Below are positions 16,617 through 27,900 of a stretch of 64,000 nucleotides of DNA, piece after piece (within the stretch, counting starts at the first letter, position 1; each line of letters begins with the position of its first letter). The stretch lies in the sequence record PQ303785.1. One strand, 5' to 3'. This DNA is from Escherichia phage LYE-01. The notes below the pieces were generated by a model. The model was not told the DNA's origin and did not search any database. It worked only from the letters and a program-made list of their open reading frames with translations. The translations under genes were made by a program, and so were the position numbers.

Positions 16617-17074
16617 ACCCATTTATTAATCGTTTAAAAATGCTGAATGTTCCTTTATCTCGTGAAACTCCAGAAAGTCTTGCTGAAAAATTTAAAGCGC
16701 ATGGTTATAAATGCACAGAAGAAGATATTTTAAAAGAAGTTCCTGAAATCTGTTGGCAGTCTGCATACTGGGATGAAAACCAAAAGTACCAACGACGGAT
16801 TGTTTGCGCAGCCAACCGTTTTAAATTAAAAGATGGACGAACTCTTATTATTCCGGGTGCTCGTCATTATTCTAAAGATATGGCCGAAGTTTTAGATGTA
16901 GTTAAACCCCAATTAGTTACTCAGCAAGTTTGTGATGATGACCAAGGGTTTATTGACCAATATAGTAATTATTGGACACGTGAAGAAGCAATGATTATTG
17001 CAACTTACGCTGGACAAGTACGTATTGAACGTGGTGGCAGTGAAAAAGAACTTTACTCTGAGGACCTTTACTAA
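16613..17074 (+). CDS. hypothetical protein (arn.3 position)
   Basis: ORF track. Confidence 0.5.
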
Positions 17075-17370
17075 TGAATATTAAAAAGTTTCAAATTGAT
17101 GGAATTACTAATCAAATCCAGGCATTGGAATATGCCAATAAAATGATGTCAACTAATTGGGGAATTTATGCTAATGAACCTGCATTTCAGTTTTGTGATA
17201 TGGAATTAACTAAAAAGCTCGTAGGAAAAGATTATGTATGTCCATTTAGTTCTCCAGTAAATGGAATGTTAAAACCTGCTTTACGCGATCTTTATATTGC
17301 GATGAACGAAGAGATGATAAAAGAGCTAAAACGTCAACTGAAGGTGATTCAATTTGGCCAGGGAAATTAA
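17074..17370 (+). CDS. hypothetical protein (arn.2 position)
   Basis: ORF track. Confidence 0.5.
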   Translation: MNIKKFQIDGITNQIQALEYANKMMSTNWGIYANEPAFQFCDMELTKKLVGKDYVCPFSSPVNGMLKPALRDLYIAMNEEMIKELKRQLKVIQFGQGN

Positions 17371-17572
17371 TTCAAAATCAGATTATTTTAATTCTCTCAA
17401 CGATAAAGATAAAAATCTAATACGGCACTTTATCGTTGAGATGGGATATACTGACACACGTGATTTAAGAGAACATATATTTGAGTGTGGTGTAGCTAAA
17501 AAGTTTTCATTCACATGCAAATGTTTAAGAGAGGTAATTCAGCATTATGAACAATTTAGTAGCAAAACATAA
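17354..17572 (+). CDS. hypothetical protein, start codon unclear (TTG in track)
   Basis: ORF track only; no in-frame ATG near the 5' end. Confidence 0.3.
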   Translation: MAREINSKSDYFNSLNDKDKNLIRHFIVEMGYTDTRDLREHIFECGVAKKFSFTCKCLREVIQHYEQFSSKT

Positions 17573-17655
17573 TTTTAATAAAGCTTCTGTCCATAAGGAT
17601 AAAAAGAAAGCGTTTAAAGAATCTAATCGCAAACAGAAACATAAGGGGAAGGTCT

Positions 17656-17934
17656 ATGATTATTGATTCTCAATCTGTGGTTCAATATACAATCAAAATT
17701 GATATTTTAGAAAAGCTATATAAGTTTCTACCAAATTTATACCACTCAATTGTTAATGAATTAGTTGAAGAACTACATCTTGAAAATAATGATTTTTTGG
17801 TTGGAACTTATAAAGATAACTCAAAGGCGGGATATTTCTACGTAATTCCAGCTCCAGGAAAAAGTATTGATGATGTATTAAAAACTATAATGTTTTACGT
17901 CCATGATTACGAAATTGAAGATTATTTCGAATGA
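17656..17934 (+). CDS. arn: probable Arn (anti-restriction, McrBC inhibitor)
   Basis: 92 aa acidic protein at the T4 arn position before asiA. Confidence 0.55.
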   Translation: MIIDSQSVVQYTIKIDILEKLYKFLPNLYHSIVNELVEELHLENNDFLVGTYKDNSKAGYFYVIPAPGKSIDDVLKTIMFYVHDYEIEDYFE

Positions 17935-18083
17935 GTCATAATCTTGAAAAGGTAATCGAGCATAATGTAGCTCAGGAACGCGAGTCGTTCAAGGAATTCG
18001 TAGAAAAAATTTTTGAAGAAAATAACACAGACCAGTTTACAAATCGAGTGTCTGATGATATTATAATAAAGTCAACTAATTGA
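17931..18083 (+). CDS. small 50-aa ORF (asiA.1 position)
   Basis: ATGA overlap with arn stop; contains the asiA promoter; coding status uncertain. Confidence 0.3.
   Translation: MSHNLEKVIEHNVAQERESFKEFVEKIFEENNTDQFTNRVSDDIIIKSTN
18035..18067 (+). promoter_or_regulatory. early promoter for asiA
   Basis: GTTTAC 18035-18040, TATTAT/TATAAT around 18059-18067. Confidence 0.5.
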
Positions 18084-18095
18084 GTGGTATAGTTA

Positions 18096-18368
18096 ATGAA
18101 TAAAAACATTGATACAGTTCGTGAAATTATTACTGTTGCATCTATTTTGATTAAATTTTCCAGAGAAGATATTGTTGAGAATCGTGCTAATTTTATTGCA
18201 TTTCTGAATGAGATTGGAGTAACGCATGAAGGTAGAAAGTTAAATCAGAATTCATTCCGTAAAATTGTTTCTGAATTAACCCAAGAAGATAAGAAAACCC
18301 TCATCGACGAATTCAACGAGGGTTTTGAGGGTGTATATCGATATCTAGAGATGTATACAAACAAATAA
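18096..18368 (+). CDS. asiA: anti-sigma70 factor AsiA
   Basis: 90 aa, MNKNIDTVREIITVASILIKFSREDIVENRANFIAFL. Confidence 0.9.
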   Translation: MNKNIDTVREIITVASILIKFSREDIVENRANFIAFLNEIGVTHEGRKLNQNSFRKIVSELTQEDKKTLIDEFNEGFEGVYRYLEMYTNK

Positions 18369-19025
18369 TTATTTAGCCCTTCCTAATATTCTGGCCGCCT
18401 GAGAACATATTGATTCAAGGCGGTCATTACTTATATGATCATTTCTATACCAGTACATGGTTATCGTTCCAGCATAGATATTATCCAAATTAAAATATGG
18501 ACAACTGTACATGTAGTTTATTTCGGGAGTAGGCTTTTTAGTTGGTAAAAAAGCAAATTTTGAGTTGGAATAATAATGACGTCCATTTAAATGAACTGTA
18601 TATTCATCCATAGTTTTATCAACAGGATATCCTCCAAGTGATTTTTCGCTTATTGTTGAAGGTAATTTTCCTTCATATGCTATAATATCAACAAAATAGT
18701 TTAAGTTTTTAGGGCGGAAAGAATACACCGCACTAAAGTCTGCCTCAGATGATATATGAACTATCTGGAGTTGTTCCAGGGCGACAGATTCAAAGCGTGC
18801 ATTTCTTTCCTTTTCAATAATTTCACTGTATGTTTCATACTTTGATTGCTTATAGTACTCAAAGAAACTATCTCCCCTATACCAAACAATCGCCATTATA
18901 AACAAAAGAATTACGACAGCTACTCGGGAAGCAAGAACCTTCCCGGTAGCGTTATCTTTGAACAAGCGATCTAGAACACCCAACAGAATATCAGAGGGCG
19001 AAAATGATATTCTAGGTGCTGCCAT
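18369..19025 (-). CDS. t: holin T
   Basis: 218 aa, MAAPRISFSPSDILLGVLDRLF with one N-terminal transmembrane segment. Confidence 0.9.
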   Translation of the reverse strand: MAAPRISFSPSDILLGVLDRLFKDNATGKVLASRVAVVILLFIMAIVWYRGDSFFEYYKQSKYETYSEIIEKERNARFESVALEQLQIVHISSEADFSAVYSFRPKNLNYFVDIIAYEGKLPSTISEKSLGGYPVDKTMDEYTVHLNGRHYYSNSKFAFLPTKKPTPEINYMYSCPYFNLDNIYAGTITMYWYRNDHISNDRLESICSQAARILGRAK

Positions 19026-19055
19026 AGACCCTCCTTTTAAGGATATTTATTCAAA

Positions 19056-19835
19056 TTATACTCTTGGACCATATATTGCTCCAACGTTTTGCCATGTCGG
19101 TGTAGACCCTATGACGGCATAACCAGCAGCACCACCGTTATATTCTGTACCGTTCCCATGAATATTACATCTACCTCCTGCTGAGCCAACTTCACCGCCA
19201 TTCCCGCCTGTATATACCCAAAGAGACCCCTCACCGACAGATCCTGCACCCGGAGCGGAAATGGTGCCAGCGGTTGCACCAGCACCCATATGAGAGGAAG
19301 ACCCGCCAGCACCGAATGGGCGACCACCACCACCACCAAATGATAGTCTACCGTAGTTACCGCCGCCGCCACCGCCACCGCCGCCTGCAATAGCTCCACC
19401 ATTATTAATTCTTAGTCTCCCACCAATATCGTTTTGAATACAATGACCTCCAGCTGAGCCAGGACTATTGCTACCGCCATTACCGCCACGTCCATACATC
19501 GTTACGCCGTGTATATTCAACTGAACATATTCATTCGGTGTATCTCCGTACATGAAGAATAAAGGAACATCTTTAGAATATGATACTAAATCTCCAGTGA
19601 TATTAAACACTATAGGTGTACTACCTGCCTCAAAACATCTATCTCGGAACCATTGACCATTGAAGTTATGGTCTGCTCCAAGTGTATGAATAATTTCTCT
19701 TGAGCGACCTGCAAATTGACTCATCCAGCAAGGAACACCCAATCTTAATTGACCAGCTGCTTGACTCATCCAGCGCTGACCCGTTTCATTTACGGCTGAA
19801 CTTCCAATCCAGCCAGGAACTCCAACTACTGCCAT
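19056..19835 (-). CDS. 38: long-tail-fibre adhesin gp38, T2 type with glycine-rich motifs
   Basis: 259 aa; poly-Gly runs between variable segments; immediately downstream of gene 37. Confidence 0.8.
19320..19390 (-). repeat. glycine-codon low-complexity runs within gene 38
   Basis: + strand CCACCACCACC... and CCGCCGCCGCCACCGCC... encoding poly-Gly. Confidence 0.8.
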
Positions 19836-19850
19836 AATTTATACTCCAAA

Positions 19851-19865
19851 GGGGGCATTTCCCCC
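19851..19865 (-). other. GC hairpin between genes 37 and 38
   Basis: GGGGG-CATTT-CCCCC in the 36-nt spacer. Confidence 0.4.
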
Positions 19866-19871
19866 TTGTTG

Positions 19872-22800
19872 TTAGAATTTAAAATATTTACTAATTTTGC
19901 GAGCAATTTTAGTAAAGAGAGGCGTTTTCAATTCTTTAATTTCTTCACTCATTTCCTGAATAGCCTTAATTAAAAGAGCATTCACTGTAGAGTTAGAAAT
20001 TGTTAAAATCTCTTCTGGGTTATCAAGAGATCCGACATTAGAAGTGCTAACAGCTTCCGGTAAAATTTCTTGTAAATCCTGCGCGATAATACCAATCTCA
20101 TGTGCGATGACTTCTCGGTCAGAAAGAGACTTAACTTTATCGTAGGTTTTAACTTTTAGTTTATTTACCTTATCTACCGCATTTTCTTCGTAGTCTTCAA
20201 CGTTAATTTTCAGACGACGGTCGGAACGAATATAAACATCGTTACAGTAAACCGACGCACTAGATGTGAAATCGCCATTTGCAGCCCATGAATACCAGCC
20301 GCCTTTGTTCATATGCATCATTACGGTAGCTTGACCACCGCCAGCATGAACACCCATTGCCGCAAGATGATCAACACCCCAATGAGTTGCTTTCCAAATT
20401 GAATATGCTCGGGTTTGTGAATCCTGACAATCTAAGAGAATACCAGCAGGACGGTTGCGCCAGTCATCCCAAGCACCACCAAAAACATCACCACGGATAA
20501 GAGCGTATTCACTATTATAAGGAACTTGCTCTCCCGCTTTAATCATTGCACCCTGGAAGTGATGACTAAATGAACCCCCATGATTATTTCGTATATGTAA
20601 AATACCCTCATCTGTAGCCCAGATAACAGCCTTTTCTGCATCGCTATCATCTCTAAACCAGATATGGCGAGCACCAGTTGAGTTTTTGATGGTTATTCCG
20701 CTAGGTCCATGCACGGTCAAAGAACCAGCAACATCAAACATCAAACTGTTATCTGTCCTGCGTTCAGCATAGAAGTGATAACCTTTTGAATCGCCGACTT
20801 CCAATACTGCCGCGCGACCAACTTCTGAATTTCCCCAATTGTTGATAGAGAATCGTTCAGAGCTATTATTCATCTGATTTAGGTATAATGTACCATCAGT
20901 GAATGTTTCGCCAAAGAAACGAGTTTTAATTGCACCTGTCGCTAAAGTACGTTCAGTGGAAAAATGGGCGCCTTGACTATCTTCTAACTGGATGATGTTA
21001 TCACGAGCGTTATTGCTATCACCCCAATGGTTAAATTTAAAATAATCTCGTGATCCTAAACGTCCGGCGTCAAAAGTCATCAAGCCTTTCATGTTAATAT
21101 CACCGCCGACCAGAACGTTATCCGGGAAGTTAACTGTACCATCAGCATTAAATCTTGATGTATGGCCCTGTGTTCCATCTTCTTTGATATGGTGTATCAC
21201 GAATGTACCTGAATTAATTTCAGTACCTAAAGACCAAACTGCTTTACCTTGAAGGTATTTTTGCTTAACAATCGGATAATATTTGTTTACAGCATCATCA
21301 TCGATTTCCTGGAAAATAGGAGCCGCTTGAACATATTGAATATCATAACCACCAGCGCCAGCGCCATGACCAACAAATTTAATATAGCCGTTCGCAGCGA
21401 ACGTATTGTAACTTGATTGTAAATCTGGAATAGTAACTTTACCGGTATCTAAAGCCATACTAAACGGGCGAAGTGGACCGATATCGCCATGTTTACCTTC
21501 ACCATAAGCAGTTGGAATAATATGAAGACTGCCTTCTGAACGTCTAAAAATAGCTCCATAATCTGCGTTCCAAATGCGAAGACCATTTACAGCATTTGTC
21601 GCGATTTCACCGGCTGCGCTGATTGTACCGTCAAATGTAGCATTTTTTACTACTGTAAAGTTTTCATTAACAATCTGGGTGCCATTTATAACCGATTCGA
21701 TTTTACCCGCAGTTGTTCGTTGAATATAATGCATCCATCCAATATCATCAGAAATTTCCATGACATTTTTACGGGTGCCTTCACTTGGATTAGTAAAAGT
21801 ATTTCCCCAAACAGCTATATACATGTTATCAACGGAGCTTTGACCCATGGTATAGCCTTTAAACATTAAAGTTGAATTATTATTTCTACCATCAATATTA
21901 ACCGAACCACCAATAACGTCAATATTGCCTGGAGTAACTAACAAACCGCCATGAGTATTAATGTTTGTGGTACCCTTACCGCGGAAATAGTGATGATAGT
22001 TACCGCCTTGATAATATCCTAAAAGAGTTTGACCGTCACCATACGCGTTATTATCATGGTAAGTAACAACAGTGGCTAATGCATAGTTTTCTGTCGGTGG
22101 CGTTGTCATAAGAATCCCATCCGGAGAATAACCCATAACCATTTTTCTAAGGCTTTGTGTTTCCGCAGGACCGTAAATGAAAGTTCTTGTTCCGTTGTTT
22201 ACTGCATGAAAATATCCGTCCTGATGCCATTTAAATCCGGTATCATTATCGCCAATAGCAATAGAACCTTTACCTAAGGCTGAATATGTCATAGGACTTG
22301 ATTCCATACCTACTGCAATTGAATGGCCTGCTTGAAGCCCACCGGAATAAGAAAATGACAACATGTAATCAGTAGGGGTTGAACCAGAATACCAACTGAT
22401 GCCGTTATTTTCACAAATTTCATGGAGCATTGCGGCCGCTGGGTCGGTACGTACAATGCGCAAATAGTTTTTATCTGTGTCAGAATTATTATTTGCTAAT
22501 GAAGATATATCATAATCGCCCGTCTTCTTCCCATCTGTAATAACTTTATCGGTCAGAATTTGTGGAGACGAAATAGATTTCCATGCTGATACTTCAGGTG
22601 AAGTAAATAGGCCACTGCCTGAAAATGCATAGGTGCTTTCATCACCAGCGGCGTAGTCTTGAACCCTGATATTAAGTACTTGTGTAGTTAATCCATCATT
22701 AGCCGGGGCATAAATTATTCCGCGTTCGCGGTTATTGCCATCGAAAAAACGAACATGCGCTGTACCTGAACTTTTTGTAATAAGTTCTCCGCCCTCAGTC

Positions 22801-23114
22801 ATAATCTGCCCGGCGGCAATAATATCGCGAGTTACTCGAGCAATACCAGTTAAATTAAAATTACCTGTCTGAGTGAAAGCGCCATTTAAAGTATAATCAC
22901 CAGTTTGATTATAGTTTCCTATATGAATAACATTCCCGTCAATGCTACCGCCCTTAGCAAAACCAAGATCAATGATATTTCCTTGGTCGTCTTTAGTAAA
23001 AAGTACGCGGTCTTTTAAGTTTATAGCCAATTCACCTTCGGCTAATACTGAAGCGGCAGGACGTGCTCCTGCAGTTTTGCTTCTTTTAAATTGTATTTGT
23101 TTTAAAGTAGCCAT
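19872..23114 (-). CDS. 37: long tail fibre distal subunit gp37
   Basis: 1080 aa; fibre repeats; C-terminal SDRRLK chaperone-like segment. Confidence 0.85.
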   Translation of the reverse strand: MATLKQIQFKRSKTAGARPAASVLAEGELAINLKDRVLFTKDDQGNIIDLGFAKGGSIDGNVIHIGNYNQTGDYTLNGAFTQTGNFNLTGIARVTRDIIAAGQIMTEGGELITKSSGTAHVRFFDGNNRERGIIYAPANDGLTTQVLNIRVQDYAAGDESTYAFSGSGLFTSPEVSAWKSISSPQILTDKVITDGKKTGDYDISSLANNNSDTDKNYLRIVRTDPAAAMLHEICENNGISWYSGSTPTDYMLSFSYSGGLQAGHSIAVGMESSPMTYSALGKGSIAIGDNDTGFKWHQDGYFHAVNNGTRTFIYGPAETQSLRKMVMGYSPDGILMTTPPTENYALATVVTYHDNNAYGDGQTLLGYYQGGNYHHYFRGKGTTNINTHGGLLVTPGNIDVIGGSVNIDGRNNNSTLMFKGYTMGQSSVDNMYIAVWGNTFTNPSEGTRKNVMEISDDIGWMHYIQRTTAGKIESVINGTQIVNENFTVVKNATFDGTISAAGEIATNAVNGLRIWNADYGAIFRRSEGSLHIIPTAYGEGKHGDIGPLRPFSMALDTGKVTIPDLQSSYNTFAANGYIKFVGHGAGAGGYDIQYVQAAPIFQEIDDDAVNKYYPIVKQKYLQGKAVWSLGTEINSGTFVIHHIKEDGTQGHTSRFNADGTVNFPDNVLVGGDINMKGLMTFDAGRLGSRDYFKFNHWGDSNNARDNIIQLEDSQGAHFSTERTLATGAIKTRFFGETFTDGTLYLNQMNNSSERFSINNWGNSEVGRAAVLEVGDSKGYHFYAERRTDNSLMFDVAGSLTVHGPSGITIKNSTGARHIWFRDDSDAEKAVIWATDEGILHIRNNHGGSFSHHFQGAMIKAGEQVPYNSEYALIRGDVFGGAWDDWRNRPAGILLDCQDSQTRAYSIWKATHWGVDHLAAMGVHAGGGQATVMMHMNKGGWYSWAANGDFTSSASVYCNDVYIRSDRRLKINVEDYEENAVDKVNKLKVKTYDKVKSLSDREVIAHEIGIIAQDLQEILPEAVSTSNVGSLDNPEEILTISNSTVNALLIKAIQEMSEEIKELKTPLFTKIARKISKYFKF

Positions 23115-23122
23115 AAGTCCTC

Positions 23123-23779
23123 TTAATAATAGCCGAAATCTTGAACAGAATCCTTAATAACAATTTGATCAAATCGTGGAACATGTGAAGGTTGAGATGC
23201 AGGATTCTGCGAAAAAAGGTTTGGCGCAGTTAAATTTCCTGTCATAGTATCTCCAGAGCGTAATACCCTAGAGTTTGCGTTTGCTGTAACAATATTTATT
23301 GCTCCATCAACATAATCTTTCCGTGTAAGGTCATAATTATTTACTGGAGATAATGAAGTTGCGCGTATTTGTGATGCTTCAATTACACCCTTTGAGCTAA
23401 TATCTCCATTTCGCGTGTTAATTACTACAGTTCTACCCGCTGAACCCTGTGATGATTTAAAACCAATACCATACCACGAAACAATATCCATATTTGTAGT
23501 ATCATATGTGGCATTATCACCAGGACCAGCAAAAATACCGTTGTCACCTGACCCTGCACCAGGAACAGTCATTCCTTTATTAAAAATTACTTTATTTAAA
23601 TACGTACCACCGTTAGCTTTAGAAACGAAATCGTTATCAGCAGCTTGTGGCTTATTATATTCTGAATATATTTTAAATGATTTATAGAGTACATCGTCAC
23701 CGGCTGGATTCAATGGAAAATTTCCTTGATGCCAAATGACAGAGCCTCCAGTTGTTGAACCTACTTTTAAATCAGCCAT
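23123..23779 (-). CDS. 36: long tail fibre subunit gp36
   Basis: 218 aa; late promoter upstream; synteny. Confidence 0.8.
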   Translation of the reverse strand: MADLKVGSTTGGSVIWHQGNFPLNPAGDDVLYKSFKIYSEYNKPQAADNDFVSKANGGTYLNKVIFNKGMTVPGAGSGDNGIFAGPGDNATYDTTNMDIVSWYGIGFKSSQGSAGRTVVINTRNGDISSKGVIEASQIRATSLSPVNNYDLTRKDYVDGAINIVTANANSRVLRSGDTMTGNLTAPNLFSQNPASQPSHVPRFDQIVIKDSVQDFGYY

Positions 23780-23802
23780 TGTATGCCCCTTTATTTTAAT
23801 AG

Positions 23803-23810
23803 TATTTATA
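23803..23810 (-). promoter_or_regulatory. late promoter (TATAAATA on - strand) for gene 36
   Basis: + strand TATTTATA between gene 35 terminator and gene 36 start. Confidence 0.65.
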
Positions 23811-23818
23811 AAGAAAAA

Positions 23819-23836
23819 GGGAACCCGAAGGCTCCC
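23819..23836 (-). terminator. terminator after gene 35
   Basis: - strand GGGAGCC-TTCG-GGTTCCC followed by a T-run. Confidence 0.6.
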
Positions 23837-23841
23837 TCAAT

Positions 23842-24960
23842 TTATACTTCTCTAAATTCTTGCCCAAATACTTTACCAGCTTTAGACGATGCTTGCGTAG
23901 GAAGTACCATTATATCCGGAGGTGAAGCAGATTCACAGATATAATTAACACGAATGCCGTTGATACCAAATTCAGCAGGTTTCGAAATACTTCCATTTCT
24001 TGACACTTCCGAAAAGCTTAAATTCCTCATGCCACCTTGACCAGCTTGAGCAGTTCTTTGTGCATATATCGTAAATCCTACTGCATTTTCTGGAATAACT
24101 ACATAATCTTCCTTTAATTCCCATGACCCAGCTTGTCCAGTAAACTCAGCATGTGTTGAAGAAATATATCCATTTGATGCATCATAAAAACGAATGGATA
24201 TATTTGTAGTTCCAAGATCAAGTAAATCAGCATCAGCATATAACTGTGCTTTAAGATAAAGAACATCACCAGGAATTAAATTATAATCAGATAGTTTACT
24301 TATAGCAGCTGAAGTTGGTAATCGCGCAATTTCGTTATTAGTTCCACCAACTGCTGACATAAATTGCTCGACACTTTCATATGTTCTTTTAGGAAATCCT
24401 GTAGCTCCGACGTCTTCTAAACTATCAAATACAACATCTAAAATAGTTTGATAGTCATCTGTGCTTTTTCTATTACTTAGTTTAACATGTTCCAATGCAA
24501 TAGCTCTTTTAGAAGAAGTATAAAAGGCAGCATATGATACGTCAAATCTTGACAATACAGAATCAGATGGAAAAGCAGACGTTCCTGCGGTTCTTATCCA
24601 AGATACTACCTCAGGAGGAAAATTAACTTTTCCGTTAGTTAATATAGCAACAAGTCTATTATTCGTCAAAGAGTTCATGAAACCAACAAAAGCAGCTGAT
24701 GTAGTATCATTTGAAGCCGAAAAAGCATATGACTTACTATCAACTAATGCTCCTGTAGAAGGGTCAAAAACTCTTAAATGAAGTCCTGCGCTAAATGTTT
24801 GACTTCCAACAGGATTATCCTGAAATTTAACGTATGGTCCTTCTGCAGTAGAAAGCGGGCAAGAACCCGCTATACTTATTTTATATCTTACTGAATTGCT
24901 TTCCGATAAAAATGGCGTTTGGACATATCCTTGTCCAAACTCTGCCATAAATTTTTCCAT
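23842..24960 (-). CDS. 35: long tail fibre hinge gp35
   Basis: 372 aa (T4 gp35 length); synteny. Confidence 0.8.
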   Translation of the reverse strand: MEKFMAEFGQGYVQTPFLSESNSVRYKISIAGSCPLSTAEGPYVKFQDNPVGSQTFSAGLHLRVFDPSTGALVDSKSYAFSASNDTTSAAFVGFMNSLTNNRLVAILTNGKVNFPPEVVSWIRTAGTSAFPSDSVLSRFDVSYAAFYTSSKRAIALEHVKLSNRKSTDDYQTILDVVFDSLEDVGATGFPKRTYESVEQFMSAVGGTNNEIARLPTSAAISKLSDYNLIPGDVLYLKAQLYADADLLDLGTTNISIRFYDASNGYISSTHAEFTGQAGSWELKEDYVVIPENAVGFTIYAQRTAQAGQGGMRNLSFSEVSRNGSISKPAEFGINGIRVNYICESASPPDIMVLPTQASSKAGKVFGQEFREV

Positions 24961-24968
24961 AATACCTC

Positions 24969-27900
24969 TTATTCAACCCATTCAAATTTAACCGTTTTAT
25001 TCACTGGGTCAGGAATAATGCGAACATTACCAATTCGTAAGAAATCACGAATAGTAAGATTCCCCATTATAGCATTATCAGATGGTAAAGCACCGATATC
25101 AGATGGCTGAGGAGGGTTACCTCCATCAAATACCTGAACAAAGCTTGACCAAGAATTTTTGGTTTTCTGCCATGTACGCGTCCAGCGAGTGGTGCGCGCT
25201 TCTGGGGTCGTTGGATAAGTAATCCAATCTTGGTAAAGCGAATCGAGTGTGTTACCAAATTGAGTCAGCGTACCAGGAGATTTAACCTCTTCACCGCGTT
25301 CTAAGTATGGAAGCCCAGTCACTTCATTAGTTTTTTCAACCATTTTAAAATAACCCGGGAACTGGTTATAAGTGGCTGAATCATTAATATCGATTGACCA
25401 GAATCCTACAGTATCAGATGTTGGCGCCCGGGTATATAAATCAGAGGTTTTAGTACCCTGAGAACGAATTCTCGAGTTAACAGTTAAACCACCTGAAGTT
25501 ATAGTAGCACCTTTGGCAATGATTAAGCTTTCACCAATTGTAACCTGACCAGATTGATTATTAATTGATAATGGACGTAATCCATTAAACCCACCAGTCT
25601 GATCACCAGATGCAGTAAGCATAAAATAGGTGTTAGCACCATCATTACGAATAAAGAATCCGTAATCACCATTTATTGCTCTAAAAGCATTCGACGATTT
25701 ACTGATAAATTCGCCATTAGCAGTAACTGAACTACCGAATGTTGCAACGCCATTCGCATTCAATGTTCCTGAAGCATTCACATTTATCGGTGTTACTGTA
25801 CCATTGATATTAAATGTTATATTACCAGCTTTATTGCGCTGAGAATAAAAGTGACTAGACGTTTCATCACTAACTTCAAATACAGTAGAACGCGTTGTGT
25901 CTGATTCACCACTAAATTGATTTCCCCACACTTTGACTGTCATCGTTTGAGCCGGGTTCGTTCCAGTTTGAGGTCCTTTCTCAAAAATCAGACGAGTTGC
26001 TGTTCCAGTATTAGAAATGGTTAGTGTACTATTTGCTGAAACTGATCCACCGAACGTAGCAGTACTAGATGATACAAGAGGGGCACTCAGATTCGTTTGT
26101 TGGGTTAAGGTTAGTGAACCATTAACCGTTTGTGCAATATCCCTACGAATGAACTGAGATGAATCTAGACCATCCAGTAAATTACTATCTACAGCTTTTG
26201 CTTTTAACGGCAAATAATTTGCTAATACACGGTTTAATTCGTATGGCGATACTGCATAACTATTTTTCTCGTACAATTCTAATGACTGTGTTGAACCAAC
26301 TGTATCATTACCAACGAATGTAATTGAACCAGATGAAGTTTTAACAAAACCTCTTACCAGAGTAGTAGCTGCCCAAGTAGGTTCACTCTGCACAATCCAT
26401 TTTAAATTTTTTGGAGATACAGCAGTATTTGCTGACGTTCCAGCTACAGTTTCAGACTGAGTTGCAACTTTAATAACGCCTTCCTGTGCTTCAGTAGATT
26501 TAGTACCTAAAAGCTTTTTAGGAGTTATTAAAACATTATCCAATGTTCCTGCAGCAGCTTCAACTTGCGTAGCCACACGAAGTGTACCACGCTGTGTCTC
26601 ATTTGCTTCAAGAATATTAAGGGTATAATGGTCCCAGAGAGTTCCTGATTCAACTAATCCAGATAGAGCAACAACAGAAGTACGATCAGTACTATTAAAT
26701 CTGGTTTTAATTTTTAATGGTGTAGAGATACGAGTATCGTCGACGCCTGCGTCGAATTCAACTTGCGTAGCAATTTCAGCTATACCACTTAAACTTTCAG
26801 TTGCTTTACGGCCATTTAAAGTTTTAGGAGTGACTGCACGAGTATAATCAGTTCCTGTATTAACTTCACTTTGCGTAGCAATTTCAATTAAACCAATTCT
26901 TGCATCAGTTGATGTCTTTTTATGTAACGTTTCTGGCGTTACAACCGCATTTGCCCATCCTTCTTGACTCTGTCCAGCAATTACTTCACTTTCAACTGCT
27001 AAAATTACTGCACCTTGTTGGGTTGGAGTAGCTTTATACTGATCCAAAGCTTTAGGCGAAACAACTAAATTATTAGTGTTTTTATTATAAACATTTGTAC
27101 CATTTAATTCACGACTAGAAGCTGCAGTAGCTCCTGCAGTAGATACAAAAGTTACAATACCAGATAATGATTCAGAACCTTGACGAGCTTGAAGCTTTTT
27201 AGGAGTGATGATTGTAGTATCATCAGTACCTGCATTAGTTTCTTGCTGTGTAGCAATTTCAGCAACACCTCTACGAGTTTCTGTAGCAGTTCTTTCATTC
27301 AGCTTTTTAGGAGTGACGATAATATCATCAGCAAAAGAGAATGTAGTATCCTGGTTCACTTGAGCAGTGGTTGCTATTCTTGCGATACCTCTACGAGTTT
27401 CTGTAGCAGTACGGTTAGCTAATGTTTCTGGGGTAATTGCTAATTCTTTTTGCGGAGAATTTTCTAAATCAGCATTTGCTTGAGCTTGTGTAGCTAAAGC
27501 AATTACGCCTAATCTTGCTCTAGTAGAATCATTTAAAGAATCAACTCTTTCAACTGTTGGCACGTTTTGCTGCACCACCCAGTATTTTCCATCAGAATCT
27601 TCTATATAAGCAAGCTGTAAAACTGGAACATAATTAGTTTCGCCGTTAAAAACTAATTCTTGAACAGTCACCCATTCAGCTTCAGGCGGATACTCTGAAC
27701 GTTTTGGGAATTGCAACAATTGAACTGAAGAAGCAATTTTATCTTCACCGGCAGCTTTGATTTTAACTGTTTGGCCTTTTCTCATGTAATTCATGGAAAT
27801 TTTAACAGTATCACCAATGGAAATATCGGTTGGAAGTTGAAGTTCAATTGTTTGGGTTGTTCCGTTATTCGCTCCAAATACCATGACTTCTTCATTTGGA

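Follow-up and report, generated by a model that had tools for sequence, protein, structure and literature searches.

Gene 38 of Escherichia phage LYE-01 encodes a T2-type glycine-rich adhesin that is expected to recognise OmpA

We find that gene 38 of Escherichia phage LYE-01, which lies on the minus strand of the 64,000-nt stretch of PQ303785.1 analysed here (the window), is a textbook T2-type gp38 adhesin gene, and the first-pass annotation of this DNA had read it correctly. With a probability of about 95%, its product is a monomeric protein that serves a T2/T6-type Tequatrovirus long tail fibre as its receptor-recognising adhesin and binds OmpA by a four-step mechanism. This reading draws on family membership, fold, gene context, the location of sequence variability and sequence identity with adhesins whose receptors are known, all observed here. 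In the proposed mechanism, gp37 would trimerise assisted by the Peptidase_S74 chaperone at its C-terminus, which would then be cut off after Ser964, and the exposed gp37 tip would be capped by one gp38 through a three-helix N-terminal attachment domain containing W9, W22 and W37. The glycine-rich motifs (GRMs) would be arranged as polyglycine-II helices in a rigid three-layer sandwich, and the four variable segments between them (HVSs) would form five loops at its distal end, where they would bind the extracellular loops of OmpA in the reversible first step of adsorption.

A 259-aa product had been claimed for positions 19056-19835, with no strand given, and an ORF with matching coordinates and length is found there on the minus strand. 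The gene order is 37-38-t, as in T4, T2 and IME340, with the gp36 and gp35 genes, together with gene 37, upstream of gene 38. The features of the locus are as follows.

18369..19025, minus strand: gene t (holin), downstream neighbour of gene 38 (Pfam Phage_holin_T, 8.4e-118)
19056..19835, minus strand: gene 38, T2-type receptor-recognising adhesin, 259 aa plus stop (ORF, Pfam, 100% identity to IME340/SP1/JE01 gp38)
19844..19847, minus strand: GGAG ribosome-binding site, read from the sequence, 8 nt upstream of the gene 38 ATG
19872..23114, minus strand: gene 37, long tail fibre distal subunit, 1080 aa, the gp38 partner (ORF, Pfam Gp34_trimer and Peptidase_S74)
19875..20222, minus strand: gp37 aa 965-1080, C-terminal intramolecular chaperone (Peptidase_S74), with a predicted cut after S964 (IRS/DRRLK, the slash marking the cut)

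The composition of the gene 38 product is skewed toward glycine in its C-terminal part (35% of aa 116-259, compared to 12% of aa 1-115). The G+C content is 47.9% for the gene and 53% for its 3' part, against 35.8% for the whole window, a rise that is due to the GGN codons. All three glycine motifs quoted in the first-pass annotation occur in the product, starting at aa 152, 166 and 210, and the first of them falls within a run of nine glycines (aa 151-159), eight of which had been quoted. The "long poly-Gly runs" described there come down to two true runs, of nine and five residues, the other motifs being rich in glycine but not poly-Gly. Likewise, the "short variable segments" are present, but at 7, 7, 31 and 12 aa they are not all short.

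We also searched the surrounding DNA for non-coding features. Scanning positions 18200-20100 for promoters and terminators gave counts at the level of shuffled controls, and the sole terminator-like match near gene 38 was on the opposite strand. The intergenic stretch between genes 37 and 38 (19836-19871) holds a GGGGG-AAAUG-CCCCC hairpin at 19851-19865, between the gene 37 stop and the gene 38 GGAG, whose folding compared to shuffled sequences is marginal at best (z=-1.98). The T4 late-promoter consensus is TATAAATA; the sequence TATAAATT, immediately before the gene 38 ATG, matches this consensus at 7 of 8 positions. Across the 64-kb window, Rfam at gathering thresholds returned no family and ARAGORN found no tRNA genes.

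Family membership was clear at both ends of the protein. Pfam GP38 (PF05268) covers aa 47-259 (5e-69; 232.9 bits against a cut-off of 25) and Gp38_N (PF21721) covers aa 1-42 (1.1e-20; 73.8 bits, same cut-off), each with full profile coverage. Searching 50,697 phage records by tblastn gave matches in 814 of them, and together with the Pfam scores this count argues that gene 38 is not a chance ORF. Among proteins of known structure, the sequence matches the PP01 gp38 receptor-binding domain (9v85, 5.3e-78) and S16 gp38 (6f45_D, 3.1e-53); these matches and the two Pfam families bear out the T2/T6-type adhesin architecture that had been proposed. The gp38 proteins of IME340, SP1 and JE01 are 100% identical to it, and their annotations read tail fibre adhesin or receptor-recognising protein. 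Two database entries of the family stand out for other reasons. In an E. coli assembly, Peptidase_S74 and GP38/Gp38_N occur together in a 303-aa protein that resembles a gp37 C-terminus fused to gp38 and could be either a real read-through or fusion product or a gene-calling artefact. A gp38 cluster at 90% identity is named from 'Bacillus cereus', probably through phage contamination of the assembly.

To place the variability of gp38, we ran a homologue search, which gave 199 proteins at E <=1e-5 and listed the best 120 of them, and aligned 119 full-length sequences, computing column entropy on the residues of the LYE-01 protein. The resulting domain plan, with mean entropies, is given below (all on the minus strand).

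19710..19835: aa 1-42, N-terminal attachment domain with W9/W22/W37, predicted to dock on the gp37 trimer tip (Pfam Gp38_N)
19497..19709: aa 43-113, linker and beta-helix domain, conserved, 0.74 bits; aligns to the 9V85/6F45 beta-helix
19473..19496: aa 114-121, GRM1 (YGRGGNGG), 0.42 bits
19452..19472: aa 122-128, HVS1 (SNSPGSA), equivalent of PP01 loop A, 1.81 bits
19359..19451: aa 129-159, GRM2, which holds the nine-glycine run, 0.53 bits
19338..19358: aa 160-166, HVS2 (NYGRLSF), equivalent of PP01 loop B, 2.32 bits
19302..19337: aa 167-178, GRM3, 0.38 bits
19209..19301: aa 179-209, HVS3, equivalents of PP01 loops C and D, 1.55 bits
19173..19208: aa 210-221, GRM4, 0.99 bits
19137..19172: aa 222-233, HVS4, equivalent of PP01 loop E, 1.93 bits
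19059..19136: aa 234-243, GRM5, and aa 244-259, conserved C-terminal strand returning to the beta-helix, 0.79 and 0.99 bits

Five GRMs alternating with four HVSs are the C-terminal plan described for gp38 by Trojet et al. 2011 (PMC3157838), and LYE-01 gp38 follows it, with GRMs at 0.38-0.99 bits and HVSs at 1.55-2.32 bits. Averaged over the 119 sequences, HVS columns reached 1.76 bits compared to 0.60 bits for GRM columns (Mann-Whitney p=1.5e-13). In an alignment of 68 sequences, G152-G156, G167-G171, P173 and G175 were invariant, as was W9, while W22 was conserved in at least 90%; W9, W22 and W37 align with the tryptophans of S16 gp38. Other gp38 proteins carry insertions after aa 109, 124, 161 and 225, clustered at HVS1, HVS2 and HVS4, with HVS2 as the main site (447 inserted residues after aa 161 among the 119 sequences). 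When aligned to LYE-01 gp38, PP01 loops A to E fall at aa 121-124, 159-165, 179-185, 200-208 and 224-231, on or beside the HVSs, and loop E is the one that governs PP01 specificity (PMC12892980). The earlier proposal that the segments between the glycine motifs are the probable receptor-contact loops therefore stands, since variability maps to these segments and they align with the receptor-recognition loops of PP01.

We then modelled the protein with AlphaFold2 from the 68-sequence alignment, which gave a mean pLDDT of 87.5 and a pTM of 0.78. The model has three short helices in aa 1-42, beta strands in aa 43-113 at a pLDDT of about 90, and further strands in aa 241-255. In a Foldseek search of the PDB, the only significant matches were gp38 structures, namely 9v85_A (rmsd 1.8 A), 9v85_C and 6f45_D (TM 0.82), at E values of 1e-23 to 1e-25, and the next match had E=3.4. 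The predicted structure of LYE-01 gp38 thus has the three-domain fold of attachment domain, beta-helix and polyglycine-II sandwich, and alignment to 9V85 and 6F45 would put the HVS loops at the distal end. In the S16 crystal structure (6F45), one gp38 sits at the fibre tip and is anchored there by three tryptophans that fill pockets on the gp37 trimer (PMC6851490). From such homologous structures we infer the cleavage of gp37, the 1:3 stoichiometry of gp38 to gp37 and the choice of loops that would touch OmpA.

The partner protein has the corresponding design. Gene 38 directly follows a gene 37 whose product ends in an S74 chaperone domain, as is characteristic of the T2 type: Pfam Peptidase_S74 (PF13884) spans gp37 aa 964-1022 (2.9e-14), S964 begins an SDRRLK motif and is followed by 116 residues, and the C-terminal part matches the S16 gp37 chain 6f45_A (9.4e-11). 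The junction motif, in the form SDxRLK, is common to T2 and FL33 gp37, and self-cleavage after Ser964 would be in keeping with both the motif and the homology. In T4 gp37, on the other hand, the Pfam search found no Peptidase_S74 but Collar and Phage_fiber domains. Because gp37 of LYE-01 has the S74 junction and matches S16 gp37, unlike T4 gp37, its fibre is of the T2/S16 design, in which gp37 would fold with its own chaperone, the chaperone would be removed, and a separate adhesin would cap the tip. Elsewhere in the fibre module, the gp35 hinge connector (23842-24960, minus strand) scores 32.6 bits (cut-off 27) over aa 59-127 with Pfam PF15711 (ILEI, Interleukin-like EMT inducer), a surprising name to meet in a phage fibre.

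The receptor can be predicted from phages with the same or nearly the same adhesin. LYE-01 gp38 is 100% identical to that of vB_EcoM_IME340 (AWD91689.1), whose GenBank record (MH051916) labels the gene 'tail fiber adhesin'. IME340 was isolated on E. coli BL21(DE3) by Li et al. 2019, who found ompA lesions in resistant mutants; deletion of ompA abolished infection and left adsorption poor, complementation brought both back, and the phage was indifferent to the tsx, ompF and fadL deletions that stopped other phages of the same study (PMC6499177). The gp38 of EV240 (Escherichia phage T4_ev240, 166,954 bp, for which we took LR597657.1 as the record) is 96% identical, differing at 10 residues. RB-TnSeq gave OmpA/HepI as the EV240 receptor, and EV240 gp38 placed in the Tsx phage CM8 redirected it to OmpA although the exchanged part comprised HVS2 onward only, a swap that places specificity in the C-terminal half of gp38 (bioRxiv 10.64898/2026.04.02.716166). 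The predicted OmpA dependence of LYE-01 is carried over from this published work on an identical and a 96%-identical protein.

A comparison of the HVSs across the family points the same way. HVS identity to LYE-01 gp38 was as follows.

FL12 gp38, receptor OmpA type 2: 86.0%
FL18 gp38, receptor OmpA type 2: 82.5%
Ac3 gp38: 81%
FL20 gp38, receptor OmpA type 2: 80.7%
T6 gp38, receptor Tsx: 57.9%
M1 gp38, receptor presumably OmpA: 33%
S16 gp38, receptor OmpC: 17%
T2 gp38, receptor FadL/OmpF: 17%
PP01 gp38, receptor OmpC: 17%
FL08 and AV119 gp38, receptor OmpA type 1: 11.9%
FL33 gp38, receptor OmpF: 8.6%

Within HVS3, 24-27 of 31-32 aligned positions match FL12, FL20, FL18 and Ac3, compared to 15 of 31 for T6. 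LYE-01 gp38 thereby shares the HVS1-4 set of FL12, FL18 and FL20, the OmpA 'type 2' phages that Lutz et al. 2025 showed to be OmpA-dependent and, by plating on OmpA-variant strains, to be limited to OmpA variants 1, 3 and 4 with a narrow host range (PMC12032242). R172, A189 and A253, contact residues predicted for type 2 by published in silico models rather than taken from a solved complex, are all present in LYE-01.

At the DNA level, we compared positions 17000-25000 of the window with IME340 and found 99.5% identity, with 44 of 8001 nt differing. Most of the differences (39 of 44) lie within 17024-18049, which holds small genes upstream of asiA in the arn and asiA.1 region, and the remaining five are spread over 18050-25000, the 7 kb with asiA, t, 38, 37, 36 and 35, suggesting a mosaic boundary near 18.05 kb and a tail-fibre module common to both phages and nearly unaltered. 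Gene order and spacing are the same. Gene 38 differs only by three synonymous GGT/GGC changes at glycine codons 153-155 (window positions 19371, 19374 and 19377); as they stand side by side in a gene of 780 nt that is otherwise identical, micro-conversion, slippage or an ambiguous assembly of the (GGY)n tract seems likelier than independent point mutations. Owing to these codons and the differences at 17024-18049, the LYE-01 window represents a close relative of IME340 and not the same record, and since 44 of 8001 nt differ in the compared region, the host and any co-receptor could differ as well. The gp37 proteins differ at one residue, Q900 in LYE-01 (window position 20415) being H in both IME340 and FL33; it precedes S964, the predicted point of cleavage, by about 64 residues and is close to the tip where gp38 would dock.

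LYE-01 and IME340 belong to a subtype of the OmpA type 2 clade. The HVS set of this clade occurs in 33 cluster representatives, including FL12 (Tequatrovirus), FL18 (Mosigvirus) and FL20 (Krischvirus). At positions 161, 165, 184, 206, 207 and 225, the subtype has Y, S, G, W, V and I in place of the R, V, S, S, A and T found in most of the clade, and these subtype residues occur in 5-9 of the 33 members; N228 is an additional difference from EV240. Of the predicted receptor loops, B contains Y161 and S165, C contains G184, D contains W206 and V207, and E contains I225 and N228. Across the receptor-binding domain, clade-variable positions were enriched in the PP01-equivalent loops (22 of 35) compared to elsewhere (38 of 111; Fisher p=0.003). 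The OmpA dependence of IME340 shows that the subtype residues do not shift the phage away from OmpA. We consider it possible, though rather doubtful, that they alter which OmpA alleles are recognised and so give a different or broader strain range than that of FL12, FL18, FL20 and EV240, with OmpA still needed.

Two other readings of gene 38 have to be weighed against an OmpA-binding adhesin. The protein could be a T4-type gp38, a non-structural chaperone that aids gp37 trimerisation and is absent from the virion. T4 gene 38 is likewise placed between gene 37 and t, and some database records still name the T2-type gp38 proteins of T6, JSE and wV7 'distal long tail fiber assembly catalyst'. However, a search for homology to the T4-type chaperone, which had been named beforehand as the result that would speak against an adhesin, found none: T4 gp38, confirmed in NC_000866 at the 183 aa that had been given approximately, shows no similarity to the gene 38 product (BLASTP best E=2 over 12 residues), and it matched no Pfam family, in contrast to the GP38 and Gp38_N matches here. 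The RefSeq note on T4 gene 38 (NC_000866) itself calls the T2-subfamily gp38 an unrelated adhesin. In addition, the gp37 of LYE-01 brings its own S74 intramolecular chaperone, in place of the Collar and Phage_fiber domains of T4 gp37, and amber mutants of T6 gp38 yield virions of normal morphology that do not adsorb (PMC3157838). We rejected the T4-type identity, as neither BLASTP nor Pfam links the two proteins, and regard it as having next to no chance of being right.

The other reading keeps the T2-type adhesin but gives LYE-01 a natural-host receptor other than OmpA, with Tsx as a candidate, or a second receptor in addition. T6 gp38, which uses Tsx, is 85% identical overall and shares all of HVS1 (7/7) and GRM4 (12/12); a single HVS3 substitution can change the receptor, as when Q206L moves RB68 from OmpF to OmpW (bioRxiv 10.64898/2026.04.02.716166); the LYE-01 subtype has rare loop residues at Y161, G184, W206, V207 and I225; and PST and RB32 are examples of gp38 phages that need more than one receptor (PMC3157838). 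On the other hand, IME340, whose protein is identical down to every rare residue, is OmpA-dependent and unaffected by tsx, ompF and fadL deletions (PMC6499177), and in HVS2-4 the resemblance to T6 is much lower than that to the OmpA type 2 set. Tsx itself was rejected, given that the similarity to T6 sits in the N-terminus, beta-helix, GRMs and HVS1 rather than in HVS2-4 and that IME340 depends on OmpA. Altogether, a receptor other than or additional to OmpA seems very unlikely to us, though less so than a chaperone.

For an OmpA-binding adhesin, the family, the fold, the modular variability and the receptor of the exact protein are all published and already known, and the adsorption and exchange experiments proposed in the first-pass annotation have been reported for the identical (IME340) and the 96%-identical (EV240) gp38. 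Correct naming of gene 38 matters for annotation, as several public records of T2-type gp38 still bear the T4-derived term 'assembly catalyst'. The sequence also allows a receptor prediction: LYE-01 should have OmpA as its primary receptor, and resistance should therefore arise through loss of ompA. In a cocktail, LYE-01 would complement phages that depend on Tsx, OmpF, OmpC or FadL.

Compared with known systems, LYE-01 gp38 resembles T4 gp38 (NP_049864.1, an assembly chaperone) in gene name and slot only, the T4 protein being unrelated in sequence, shorter and without glycine motifs. T2 gp38 belongs to the same family and has the same architecture and slot, but it is only 50% identical overall, with the HVSs at the level listed above, and the T2 gp37 tip matches that of LYE-01 at 47 of 226 positions despite the common SDxRLK S74 junction; "T2-type" denotes membership of the family here and not close similarity to T2. 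S16 and PP01 provide the structural parallel, as the S16 gp37-gp38 tip (6F45) and the PP01 gp38 receptor-binding domain (9V85) have the same three-domain fold with conserved GRMs and tryptophans. Both bind OmpC, however, and their HVSs are as distant as those of T2; relative to PP01, HVS2 of LYE-01 is shorter than loop B and its loop D equivalent is longer. T6 gp38 is the closest of the classical proteins in its N-terminus (41/42) and has the same position after gene 37, but it differs by a longer HVS2, a shorter HVS3 and its receptor.

The closest parallels show how the modules of gp38 are combined. The N-terminal domain of LYE-01 is of the T6/M1/FL33/FL20 type (41-42 of 42 residues), while FL12 gp38 joins the same HVS set to a T2-type N-terminus (29/42) and FL18 and Ac3 gp38 have a third, Ac3-type N-terminus. 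The FL18 gene (277-990 of the stretch examined) probably has its start codon called too far downstream, since the annotated product of 237 aa is missing some 22 N-terminal residues of the attachment domain and with them the first conserved tryptophan. For FL20, neither a holin gene nor gene 37 adjoins gp38 in the stretch examined (PP400781.1, 449-1228), in agreement with a reported distance of about 55 kb between gp38 and gp37 in Krischvirus (bioRxiv 10.64898/2026.04.02.716166). The spread of the OmpA type 2 set over at least three genera agrees with the published idea that gp38 is shuffled at its GRMs (PMC3157838). FL33, which depends on OmpF (PMC12032242), matches LYE-01 at 199 of 200 positions in the gp37 tip, 117 of 117 in the chaperone domain and 42 of 42 in the gp38 N-terminus, yet has the least similar HVSs of all. 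The pair would represent a natural exchange, with the same shaft and docking module, different C-terminal gp38 domains and different receptors, as the adhesin model predicts. FL12, FL18, FL20 and EV240, all experimentally OmpA-dependent, share with LYE-01 the HVS set, the GRMs and the conserved R172, A189 and A253, at 81-86% HVS identity for the three FL phages and 85-94% over the receptor-binding domain (aa 114-259) for the type 2/EV240 set.
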